In this document: positions 43,535 to 46,086 of the stretch, piece by piece | Numbering within the stretch: position 1 is the stretch's first letter | Layout: each line of letters begins with the position of its first letter | Notes under the pieces: generated by a model | Databases searched by the model: none | Seen by the model: only the letters and a program-made list of their open reading frames with translations | What the model was told of the DNA's origin: nothing | Assembly (NCBI GenBank): GCA_050741515.1 | Contig: JBOIFD010000414.1 | Coordinates: 14,599 to 78,598, forward strand | Length of the DNA: 64,000 nt | Direction: 5' to 3' | Source of the DNA: Burkholderiales bacterium | Lineage (GTDB): Bacteria > Pseudomonadota > Gammaproteobacteria > Burkholderiales > SG8-39 | Translations under genes and position numbers: made by a program

Positions 43535-44824
43535 ATGGCGGCCACTCGAGTCCTGGTCACCGGCATCGGGGCGGTCTGCGGCGCCGGCCGGACGCCGGAC
43601 GAGATCCTGGACGCGGTGGAGGCCGGCCGCTCGGCCATCTCGCCCATCCGGCAATGGGACACGACGGGGTGGCCGGTGCGGGTGGCGGCCGAGATCCCCG
43701 ATTACAACCCGAACGCGCTGGTTGCGGACCGGAAGCTGCACAAGCTCATCCGGCGCACCGATCTGCTCGGCCTGTACGCGGCCGGGCGGGCGATCGAAGG
43801 CTCCGGGTTCGTCGGCTACCGCGAGACGCTGGATCCCGATGCCGCCACCGCGGCCAACGACCGGATGGGGGTCTACGTCGGGTCGGGCGGCGGCGGGTAC
43901 CAGAATCAGTACGATTTCTTTCCGCTGCTGACCGCGGCCGACGGCGACCTCGGGACATTCGGCCGGGAGCTCGGCGCGACCGTGAACCCGATGTGGCTCC
44001 TGCGGACGTTGCCGAATAACGTGCTGTGTCACGTCGGCATCCGCTACGGGCTCAAGGGGTCGAACGCCTGCGTGACGAACCACGTGGTGGGCGGGACGCT
44101 CGCGGTCATCGAGGCCGTGGCGGCGCTGCGCACGGCCGAGGCCGATCGCGCGGTCGCGATCGGCCACGACGCGCCGATCGAGCCGCAGATGGTCTTCTAC
44201 TACCACCGTGTCGGCCTCCTCGCGACCGAGGCCGTGCGCCCGTTCGACGCCGGTCGCGACGGCAGCCTGTTCGGGGAGGGCGCCGGGGCCCTGGTCGTGG
44301 AGACCGACGCCGCGGCCGCAAGCCGCGGTGCCACCGTAATCGGCGAGATCCTCGGCAGCGGGTGCACCACCGATGCAGAGGGCCTGTTCGCGATCCGGGA
44401 CGACGGCGACGGGCTCGCGCGCGGGATCGAGCTCGCGCTGGAGGACGCCGGCATCCGCGCCGCCGACGTCGGGATGATCTCGGCCCACGGCAACGGCACG
44501 CGGCAGTCGGACGCGTCCGAGGCGGCCGCCATCCGCCGCGTTTTCGGCCCGGCGTCGCCGCCGGTTACCGCGTTCAAGTGGGCCTTCGGTCATCTGATCG
44601 CCGCGTCGGGACCGGTCGAGATCGTGCTGACACTGACGGCGCTGCGGCGAGGAACGGTTCCTGGCGTGGCCACCTTGCGCCGGCTCGACCCGGCATGCGG
44701 CGAGCTGCCGGTGTCGGCCAAGCATCAGACCCCGCGCAGCGACGTGGGGCTCGTCCTGAGCCGGGGCTTCGGAGGAACCAACGCCGCGCTCCTCGTGCGC
44801 GCCGTGCCCGGCAAGACGCGTTGA
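43535..44824 (+). CDS. Ketosynthase paralogue lacking the catalytic Cys (chain-length-factor-like)
   Basis: ATG at 43535 (MAATRVLVTGIGAV). The whole protein is KS-like. At the Cys position it reads ACVTNHVVGGTLAV instead of TACASGG. The first catalytic His region reads GCTTDAEG, with no His. The second His is kept (ISAHGNGT). Confidence 0.75.
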   Translation: MAATRVLVTGIGAVCGAGRTPDEILDAVEAGRSAISPIRQWDTTGWPVRVAAEIPDYNPNALVADRKLHKLIRRTDLLGLYAAGRAIEGSGFVGYRETLDPDAATAANDRMGVYVGSGGGGYQNQYDFFPLLTAADGDLGTFGRELGATVNPMWLLRTLPNNVLCHVGIRYGLKGSNACVTNHVVGGTLAVIEAVAALRTAEADRAVAIGHDAPIEPQMVFYYHRVGLLATEAVRPFDAGRDGSLFGEGAGALVVETDAAAASRGATVIGEILGSGCTTDAEGLFAIRDDGDGLARGIELALEDAGIRAADVGMISAHGNGTRQSDASEAAAIRRVFGPASPPVTAFKWAFGHLIAASGPVEIVLTLTALRRGTVPGVATLRRLDPACGELPVSAKHQTPRSDVGLVLSRGFGGTNAALLVRAVPGKTR

Positions 44825-46086
44825 TGACCGAAGGCGCCGGGCTGCCTCCGCGTTGCGGAATCGACACGGTCGCGATTGCGCGCATCGAGCGGCTGCTCCG
44901 CGAGACACCCGACGAAGACCTCCGCAATCTCTTCTCCCCGGCCGAGTTGGGCGACAGCGGGGACGGTCCGGGCCGCGCGGCGAGCCTCGCGGCACGGTTT
45001 GCCGCGAAGGAGGCGTGCCTCAAGCTGTTCCCGCGCGAGGCAACGCTCGGGCTCCTCGGCCCGGCGGACTTCTCGGTCGCACGCGACGGCTACGGCGCGC
45101 CGTGCGTGGAGTGCAGCCGGGCAGCGCAGGATGTCCTGCATCGCCACCGCGTTCGATCGATCGCGCTCTCGCTTTCGCACGACCGTACGACCGCGTCGGC
45201 GGTCGCGATGACCGAGGCGGCCGAAACGGTGGTCCCGTTCATCGGCAAGCTCGTCTACCACCTGCTCCCGATCCGCCGCGGGGTGATCCTTGCCAACTTG
45301 CGGCGCGTCTTCGGGAGCACGGTCCCCGGGGCCGAGATCAAGCGACTCGCGCAGGCGCATTACGCCCACCTCGCGCGGCTGGCGGGAGAGTTTCTATGGT
45401 ACCCCTGGCTCTCGAAGGCACGGCGAGCGGCGGTCGTGCGGGTCGACAACGTCGCGGCGATCGACGCCGAGCTGGAGCGGGGCACCGGGGCGATCGTGAT
45501 CACCGGCCACTTCGGCAACTGGGAGGTCGCGACCGCCGCGGCGATCAGCTCCAGCCGGTTCGCCTATGCTCGCGGCCGGTTCCAGTTCGTGCGCCGCGCG
45601 CTGAAGCCCGGGTGGTTCGACGCGCTGGTGACGCGGCGCTTCCGCCGCGCCGGCTTCGGCACGCTGCCCAAGCGCGGCGCTCTCGACGCCATCGTCCGCT
45701 GTCTGGAGAAGGGCGACATGGTCGTTTTCCCCTTCGACCAGCACGCCGGCGGAAGGGACGCCATCCAGGTCGAGTTCTTCGGGCATCCGGCGGGGACCTT
45801 CCGCAGCGTGGCGATCATCGCCATGGCCACCGGCGCTCCGGTGCTCCCCGCGGCGAGCTGGCGTGAGCCCGACGGCCGCCATGTCCTGCGCTTCGAGGAA
45901 CCGTTGCCGGTGATCGAGTGCGAGGACGTGAGCGAGGCGATCCGCCGGAACACGCGCGCCTACAACGCCGCCCTGGAACGCCTGATCCTGCGCCGCCCCG
46001 AGCAGTGGTGGTGGGTCCATCGGCGCTGGAAAGGGGCGCCGCGCGCGCACGATCAGGGCGTCAGTACACCCGGCGCTCGAGCCTGA
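44824..46086 (+). CDS. Fusion protein: AcpS-type 4'-phosphopantetheinyl transferase + LpxL/HtrB-family (lysophospholipid/lipid A) acyltransferase
   Basis: The ATG shares one nt with the previous stop (TGATG). Residues ~10-125 carry AcpS-like motifs: [28 protein letters not shown] and LSLSHD. Residues ~130-420 carry ITGHFGNWE (the H-x4-D/E acyltransferase box as I recall it for PF03279) and end in [11 protein letters not shown], which is typical of that family. Confidence 0.7.

Follow-up and report, generated by a model that had tools for sequence, protein, structure and literature searches.

A predicted phosphopantetheinyl transferase-acyltransferase fusion at the end of a seven-gene, fatty-acid-synthase-like cassette from Burkholderiales

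Among the described systems that resemble the locus treated here, the rhizobial acpXL-fabZXL-fabF2XL-fabF1XL-adh-lpxXL cluster encodes a dedicated acyl carrier protein (ACP), a dehydratase, two ketosynthase (KS) paralogues and an acyltransferase of family PF03279, all co-oriented, and makes the very-long-chain fatty acid of lipid A (PMC11901934). The same relative order (ACP, dehydratase, KS, KS and finally the acyltransferase) and the same principle, by which an acyl pool is kept private and passed on to a single acceptor, are met in a Burkholderiales bacterium (GTDB lineage SG8-39), within a stretch of 64,000 nucleotides that was analysed as a whole (hereafter the window; GenBank assembly GCA_050741515.1, contig JBOIFD010000414.1, positions 14,599 to 78,598 of the forward strand). 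Here, seven co-oriented and tightly packed genes (39375-46086, with overlaps or gaps of at most 32 nt) end in a single open reading frame (ORF) that joins an AcpS-type phosphopantetheinyl transferase (PPTase) to an acyltransferase of the LPLAT fold. Judged from sequence and from named precedents, on which every step of the proposal is based, this fusion would be a bifunctional 'prime-and-unload' terminal enzyme of a self-contained, horizontally mobile cassette that resembles a fatty-acid synthase (FAS), a reading to which we assign a probability of roughly 0.6. In its favour, both domains score above their Pfam cut-offs, the catalytic residues of both halves are nearly invariant, and the junction between them is of fixed length.

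The likeness to the rhizobial cluster holds at the family level. The latter is devoid of PPTase, FabL and FabG and includes the alcohol dehydrogenase adhA2XL, whereas Pfam and NCBIfam searches of the cassette yielded no Adh-type (omega-1 alcohol dehydrogenase) gene; AcpXL, moreover, comprises ~92-100 residues without an insertion, as opposed to 141 residues with an insertion in the cassette ACP. A second group of relatives, namely anammox amxFabF2/amxFabFmut, aryl-polyene clusters and highly reducing type II polyketide synthases (PKSs), likewise places an active KS and a Cys-less paralogue beside a private ACP and a dehydratase. In anammox bacteria, the FabF2/FabFmut heterodimer decarboxylates malonyl-ACP and thereby primes itself (bioRxiv 10.64898/2026.05.19.726425). 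Compared with these FAS-like clusters, whose FabF heterodimers are of the type of a KS with a chain-length factor (CLF), the cassette adds an enoyl reductase and the PPTase-LPLAT fusion and is free of radical SAM enzymes and aryl starter machinery. In classical aromatic PKSs, the CLF carries Gln at the site of the catalytic Cys; the type II PKS KS-CLF pair and the cassette share an active KS with a Cys-less paralogue, but the cassette partner has Val instead of Gln.

A PPTase that is fused to the synthase whose ACP becomes primed is also known from the alpha-subunit of fungal type I FAS (2was, 2wat), and this PPT domain, too, is of the AcpS type and is found among both the fold matches (target-normalised TM-score, TMt, about 0.7) and the sequence matches of the N-terminal half. 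The fungal domain is located C-terminally, after the KS of a megasynthase, whereas here the PPTase is N-terminal, the system is of the dissociated type II, and the partner is the acyltransferase that putatively off-loads its product. AcpS itself (3qmn, 5vcb) has the fold and the Mg2+-binding and catalytic residues in common with the N-terminal 131 residues of the fusion; it is, however, a stand-alone protein of ~125 residues, while the fusion domain is covalently linked to an acyltransferase and lies inside a biosynthetic cassette.

For the C-terminal half, three described acyltransferase groups are of relevance. LpxL, LpxM (5kn7) and LpxP belong to the same Pfam family, carry the HX4E box, match in fold and presumably share the acyl-ACP donor, but differ from the fusion in their N-terminal membrane helix and equivalog scores; a location of the fusion near lpx genes is not conserved across loci. 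PatA (5f2t, 5oce), the mycobacterial acyltransferase of phosphatidylinositol mannosides, is the closest solved structure (E 5e-16, 24% identity); it has no transmembrane helix, binds the membrane peripherally and uses a catalytic His that is partnered by a distal acid (PMC9597891), yet it takes palmitoyl-CoA as donor and a mannoside as acceptor and is a single-domain actinobacterial enzyme. VexE, a TPR-LPLAT protein for the glycolipid anchor of the Vi antigen, is a soluble, ACP-dependent member of the LPLAT family (PMC9597891) in which, as in the fusion, a non-membrane N-terminal domain precedes the LPLAT domain, and its acceptor is other than lipid A. It differs in that this domain consists of TPRs, in its use of the housekeeping ACP and in its location in a capsule locus.

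Continuity and occurrence of the fusion

Translation of 44824-46086 (+) gives 420 codons followed by TGA, with zero internal stops, and the ATG of the fusion shares 1 nt with the TGA of the upstream KS-like gene (ATGA). The original prediction, which had been made from the letters alone, described a continuous frame without a stop between the halves, and this was borne out; the motifs that it named ([35 protein letters not shown] and WWWVHRRWK) are all found in the translation. Both domains exceed their curated Pfam cut-offs: PF01648 (ACPS) covers residues 11-102 with 39.9 bits (cut-off 25) and PF03279 (Lip_A_acyltrans) residues 132-403 with 128.4 bits (cut-off 22.3). At the domain level of NCBIfam, TIGR00556 was passed with 54 bits (cut-off 45.35), and in a sequence search of solved structures the two halves separately matched PatA, AcpS and LpxM.

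For the following comparisons, the 120 best protein clusters (66-100% identity) were drawn from NCBI, JGI, ENA and Logan, a genome scan with one genome per GTDB species gave 585 relatives of which the best 80 were used for locus comparisons, and residue conservation and junction length were counted in an alignment of 201 sequences (51-100% identity). Both Pfam domains are present in 120/120 clusters, residues ~1-403 are matched in one frame in 80/80 loci, and the junction segment (residues 120-150) comprises exactly 30 residues without any indel in 201/201 sequences. Carriers of the fusion include the cultured isolate Jezberella montanilacus (L080, with intact ORF) and a complete chromosome (L069). 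These counts rule out that two adjacent genes were merged by a frameshift from sequencing, by loss of a stop codon or by chimeric assembly; for such an artefact speaks only the prior that metagenome-assembled genomes (MAGs) may hold errors, and its probability is negligible, also in view of a GC content at third codon positions (GC3) of 0.88 that is similar to that of the neighbouring genes. An internal start that would give rise to a separate LPLAT protein was ruled out as well, as Met129 is not conserved and Leu is the commonest residue at this position (59%).

At its 3' end, the fusion gene overlaps the convergent ppsR gene by its last 26 nt (46061-46086). The overlap had been taken to leave the exact C-terminus uncertain; it is real and recurs identically in L085 and L086, two independent assemblies of an 88%-identical relative. 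It casts no doubt on the gene, because only the tail beyond the RRWK motif is affected, which is not conserved and is modelled with low confidence (pLDDT <50).

The fusion architecture is common across many species and several phyla and not new to databases, where automatic annotation lists it as, e. g., '4'-phosphopantetheinyl transferase superfamily protein' or 'KDO2-lipid IV(A) lauroyltransferase'. Each of these names covers only part of the fusion, which constitutes an annotation problem in its own right. The suggestion that the architecture had not been described fails for the databases; for the literature it holds in so far as our full-text searches returned no functional study of a PF01648+PF03279 fusion or of the seven-gene cassette, and nothing beyond analogous cases, namely acpXL/lpxXL, VexE and the KS/CLF pair of anammox bacteria. 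The novelty does not lie in the two halves, whose families are well known, but in their fusion with its rigid junction, in the atypical ACP and in the portability of the cassette. A tblastn search of the PLSDB plasmids revealed no fusion and only stand-alone LPLATs at 26-32% identity. Similarly, no cassette of like composition with separate acpS and LPLAT genes, i. e., an unfused ancestor, was found. The nearest stand-alone LPLAT (P0133, 49% identity) lies alone among unrelated neighbours. Among the more distant relatives of the LPLAT half, proteins of ~600 residues with two PF03279 domains in tandem were also observed (P0144, P0150, P0186, P0242 and P0255).

The two predicted enzyme halves

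The AcpS-type nature of the N-terminal half, as originally proposed, is corroborated by the profile matches given above and by its fold, for which Foldseek retrieved the AcpS structures 3qmn, 5vcb and 5xu7 (TMt 0.72-0.74, probability 1.00). The predicted catalytic residues are conserved almost without exception (D14 in 199/201, E63 in 201/201, K67 in 200/201 and H119 in 201/201 sequences); their roles as Mg2+-binding Asp and Glu, catalytic Lys and CoA-contacting His are assigned by analogy with the B. subtilis AcpS motifs. Conservation of these four residues across phyla argues for selection for catalysis in the PPTase half. The equivalog cut-offs of housekeeping AcpS were missed (TIGR00516 with 40.8 vs 59.8, NF000832 with 58.4 vs 107 and NF011250 with 56.9 vs 175 bits). 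AcpS enzymes are trimers with active sites at the subunit interfaces, and the fusion therefore probably oligomerises the acyltransferase and supplies it with an ACP-binding module.

In the C-terminal half, the acyltransferase residues are similarly well conserved (H229 in 201/201, E234 in 198/201 and D305 in 200/201 sequences), and D305 is aligned with the acidic residue in the 'AERD' segment of PatA. The PF03279 match starts at residue 132 and covers profile positions 33-294 of 295, and the AcpS domain occupies the position of the N-terminal membrane helix of LpxL. Such a helix was not found in the fusion (Kyte-Doolittle maximum of 1.43 over 19-residue windows), and the LPLAT domain has an isoelectric point (pI) of 10.9. 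Probably, the AcpS domain replaces the LpxL membrane anchor, with a protein that is peripheral at the membrane in the manner of PatA. Foldseek likewise places PatA (TMt 0.83-0.85, with 0.85 for 5f2t) closest and LpxM (5kn7, TMt 0.67) further away, and the PatA equivalog NF005919 was not reached (74.4 vs a cut-off of 209 bits). The original assignment as LpxL/HtrB-type enzyme can hence be retained in so far as family PF03279 and the LPLAT fold are concerned, but not at the level of LpxL, LpxP and LpxM, whose equivalog cut-offs were missed (TIGR02207 with 84.1 vs 297.8 and TIGR02208 with 37.2 vs 336 bits). The best NCBIfam match of this half, NF006270, also stays below its cut-off (121.7 vs 248 bits). 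By its sequence, the half is a member of the PF03279 family, for which 'lipid A late acyltransferase' is a family label only.

Cassette genes and the proposed route

The cassette members and the adjacent ppsR gene are listed in Table 1. The order FabL-FabG-ACP-dehydratase-KS-KS-like partner-fusion is kept in every one of the best 80 loci with enough contig, in which FabL is collinear at 66-81% identity, and the 141-aa ACP accompanies the fusion in each of them. This co-occurrence fits a private carrier protein that may serve as substrate of both halves. More distant fused proteins are also encoded downstream of a KS pair of this kind, and one such member shares the gene order.

Table 1. Genes of the cassette, parts of the fusion and the convergent neighbour, in window coordinates.
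Feature	Position	Strand	Evidence and remarks
FabL-type enoyl-ACP reductase, 251 aa	39375..40130	+	first gene; NF005975 340.8 vs equivalog cut-off 328 bits; adh_short_C2
FabG-like 3-oxoacyl-ACP reductase, 252 aa	40139..40897	+	NF009466 246.8 vs cut-off 222 bits; 8 nt after FabL
Atypical ACP, 141 aa	40904..41329	+	PF00550 at residues 16-69 only; attachment Ser46 in LDAESID
Double-hotdog dehydratase, 278 aa	41362..42198	+	Pfam FabA in two stretches, best at residues 169-272
FabF-like KS, 439 aa	42195..43514	+	NF005589 (KAS II subfamily) 431.8 vs cut-off 387 bits; Cys in HTACASG
KS-like partner, chain-length-factor-like, 429 aa	43535..44824	+	Val at catalytic Cys position; both His kept
Fusion gene, 420 aa	44824..46086	+	single ORF, PPTase + LPLAT-fold acyltransferase; last cassette gene
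AcpS-type PPTase domain, residues 11-131	44854..45216	+	PF01648, TIGR00556, Foldseek AcpS matches
LPLAT acyltransferase domain, residues 132-405	45217..46038	+	PF03279; HX4E box H229-E234; D305
C-terminal tail and stop codon	46039..46086	+	variable in alignment; pLDDT <50 at residues 405-420
ppsR (PEP synthase regulatory kinase/pyrophosphorylase)	46061..46888	-	PF03618, E 5.8e-80; convergent neighbour, outside cassette

The ACP is longer than usual (141 vs ~80 residues), has an ESI instead of a DSL attachment motif and a pI of 5.0, and misses every ACP cut-off of NCBIfam. Its additional length stems from a near-invariant helical insertion of ~55 residues (about 66-122) between helix II and the last helix, for which the AlphaFold2 (AF2) model shows additional helices at 66-120; the top 120 relatives (79-100% identity) mostly comprise ~142 residues. 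The insertion is absent from all solved ACPs. Of these, just the AcpXL structures 2kw2 and 3lmo could be aligned along the entire ACP model, albeit weakly (E 0.014, TMt 0.67), and by sequence the match to 2kw2 (E 8.7e-7) is no better than that to ordinary ACPs.

The C-terminal half of the dehydratase is FabZ-like and retains the His motif (DHFPRRAVFPG), whereas translation shows an N-terminal half without that His, which looks like an inactive pseudo-subunit; FabZ profiles stayed below their cut-offs on this protein. The KS and its partner share 34% identity, with HTACASG opposite TNHVVGG, and among solved structures the partner is closest to FabF enzymes and not to the chain-length factors of PKSs. 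Neither Pfam nor NCBIfam revealed a thioesterase, ligase or other off-loading enzyme among the cassette genes.

The fusion is read as a prime-and-unload enzyme because its LPLAT domain is the only one in the cassette that could release the chain and because only malonyl loading is missing. Precedents for such a scheme are the fungal PPT domain, the acpXL-lpxXL cluster, the self-priming FabF heterodimer of anammox bacteria and VexE. In the proposed route, the N-terminal AcpS-type domain would use CoA and Mg2+ to install phosphopantetheine on Ser46 of the ACP, and malonate would be loaded by the FabD of the host. Chain building on the private ACP, apart from housekeeping fatty-acid synthesis, would then fall to the KS with its Cys-less partner, to FabG, to the dehydratase and to FabL; given the enoyl reductase, the acyl chain should be fully reduced. 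Finally, the C-terminal LPLAT domain, presumably by a dyad of His229 and an acid, would transfer the chain from the acyl-ACP to a hydroxyl group of an envelope lipid or glycolipid. Fusion of the two activities would free the cassette from the specificity of host PPTases.

Several findings weigh against this proposal. At +2 and +5 after the Ser, the ACP still has the acids that AcpS enzymes normally read, so that a dedicated PPTase is not necessarily required. PatA, the closest solved acyltransferase, accepts acyl-CoA instead of acyl-ACP, and the AF2 model of the fusion reaches only moderate confidence (pLDDT 75.8, pTM 0.62) and, as a monomer, is silent on trimerisation. Furthermore, a divergent fused relative (P0128, L084:456-1679; 41-44% identity), in which Pfam detects PF03279 only, has an AcpS-sized N-terminal domain without the Asp, Glu, Lys and His, which suggests that the function of the N-terminal domain is in part, or even mainly, structural.

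Taken further, this last point leads to a different view of the AcpS half, namely that it trimerises the enzyme, docks the ACP and stands in for the lost LpxL helix while the AcpS of the host primes the carrier. Besides P0128, which keeps the domain after loss of its catalytic residues, the rigid and indel-free junction, the location of the AcpS domain exactly where the LpxL helix would lie and the conventional recognition acids of the ACP all speak for it. P0128 is, however, encoded on a single short metagenomic contig (2.85 kb), and retention of D14, E63, K67 and H119 in 199-201 of the 201 sequences, across phyla, would hardly be expected unless catalysis were under selection, so that we consider a mainly structural role distinctly improbable.

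A bolder version of the prime-and-unload proposal can be put forward only tentatively. According to it, the cassette would be a mobile plug-in second FAS with which soil and freshwater Burkholderiales as well as NC10, Verrucomicrobiota and Binatia provide their envelope lipids with a novel acyl modification. The terminal enzyme would represent a novel type of machine, an AcpS trimer with two tasks: to prime a new ACP subclass, recognisable by the conserved helical insertion of 55 residues, and to keep three acyltransferase domains, peripheral at the membrane, in fixed geometry, so that the ACP is activated and unloaded on one scaffold. Should the proposed function be correct, numerous uncultured diderm bacteria and a few cultured ones own a private fatty-acid synthase for which the host has to contribute nothing but malonyl loading, and one and the same protein activates the carrier and fixes the product onto an envelope lipid. 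It would represent a bacterial type II counterpart of the self-pantetheinylating fungal FAS and would imply an as yet uncharacterised lipid modification with a wide distribution across environmental genomes and metagenomes. The trio of ACP, PPTase and acyltransferase would, in addition, be compact and transferable for lipid engineering.

With respect to mobility, carriers are labelled as Burkholderiales (Casimicrobiaceae and Burkholderiaceae), NC10/Methylomirabilis, several orders of Verrucomicrobiota, and Binatia. An NC10 copy is 65% identical to that of the window vs 53-54% for the Burkholderiaceae copies, which is consistent with horizontal spread of a self-contained cassette. The flanks of the cassette are not conserved among the 80 loci. 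The composition of the cassette (GC 0.714, GC3 0.88-0.93) equals that of its flanks and gives no sign of a recent transfer. For four loci (L038, L046, L066 and L072), the record titles read Akkermansia muciniphila, Bifidobacterium sp. or Bordetella parapertussis, yet they are environmental bins; these labels look unreliable, and the taxonomic spread is to be taken with care.

Candidate acceptors and gene neighbourhood

Lipid A or another acyloxyacyl lipid is our leading guess for the acceptor. In the window, the cassette follows a classical block for the outer membrane and lipid A on the same strand (31513-39322) that consists of bamA, skp, lpxD, fabZ, lpxA, lpxB and rnhB and then a gene for a SpoU-family methylase, and it lies between the latter and ppsR/ppsA. 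The same site is found in L085 and L086 (88%) and not in other lineages, and none of the 80 related loci has ppsR in its flanks. A conserved link to lipid A genes appears improbable: an lpx gene lies within 10 kb in 1/80 other loci, and the lpxD-fabZ-lpxA-lpxB adjacency of the window is probably lineage-specific.

These findings bear on a narrower version of the prime-and-unload reading, in which the cassette would be a lipid A secondary acyltransferase system, functionally analogous to AcpXL/LpxXL, that attaches a special (e. g., very long) chain to Kdo2-lipid IVA. The proximity to lpx genes in the window and its 88% relative points in this direction, as do the lipid A lauroyl acyltransferases as best NCBIfam matches, the gene order that parallels acpXL-lpxXL, and the weak alignment of AcpXL structures, and of no others, with the full-length ACP model. 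Moreover, in about 20 loci (e. g., L016:11149-12213 (+)) an Asp/Asn beta-hydroxylase of the LpxO/OlsC family (PF05118, E 1.6e-47) is encoded directly downstream of the fusion, although the window has no such gene. The LpxO/OlsC family hydroxylates secondary acyl chains, and the downstream gene hints at a later hydroxylation of the transferred chain. On the other hand, the LpxL/LpxP/LpxM equivalogs are missed by a wide margin, the membrane helix is lacking, the fold is nearer to PatA than to LpxM, lpx genes are nearby in just the one other locus, and the omega-1 dehydrogenase gene of the rhizobial cluster has no counterpart. Overall, a system confined to lipid A seems rather doubtful to us.

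A further peculiarity of about 40/80 loci is a same-strand upstream extension with a gene for a PEMT/ICMT-like membrane methyltransferase and genes for three paralogous proteins of 400-620 residues (e. g., L004:184-4540 (+) and L017:236-2053 (+)). No match to these accessory genes was found in the 64 kb of the window. Two of the paralogues (L004:184-2043 and L004:3329-4540) remained without any Pfam match up to an E of 5, and the third, u2, gave only a sub-threshold match to Condensation. Searched as single sequences against PDB sequences, u2 and L004:3329-4540 had no meaningful match. A profile of 28 u2 orthologues (A5), by comparison, weakly matched the condensation/PapA5 superfamily (2xhg with E 2.4e-4 and PapA5 8s6l with E 7.5e-4).

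The extension raises the possibility that the cassette belongs to a different complex lipid or glycolipid pathway. Instead of a common envelope lipid, an intermediate specific to this pathway or a sugar nucleotide would then accept the chain, in analogy to PatA and VexE. Condensation/PapA5-type acyltransferases use carrier-tethered donors, PatA is the closest fold, and VexE demonstrates that the LPLAT family can acylate UDP-GlcNAc (PMC9597891). We nevertheless rate such a pathway as unlikely, since the window, the NC10 and Burkholderiaceae loci and others contain the seven-gene core without the accessory genes nearby; in these bacteria, either the core works with a generally available acceptor or the accessory genes are located elsewhere in the genome.

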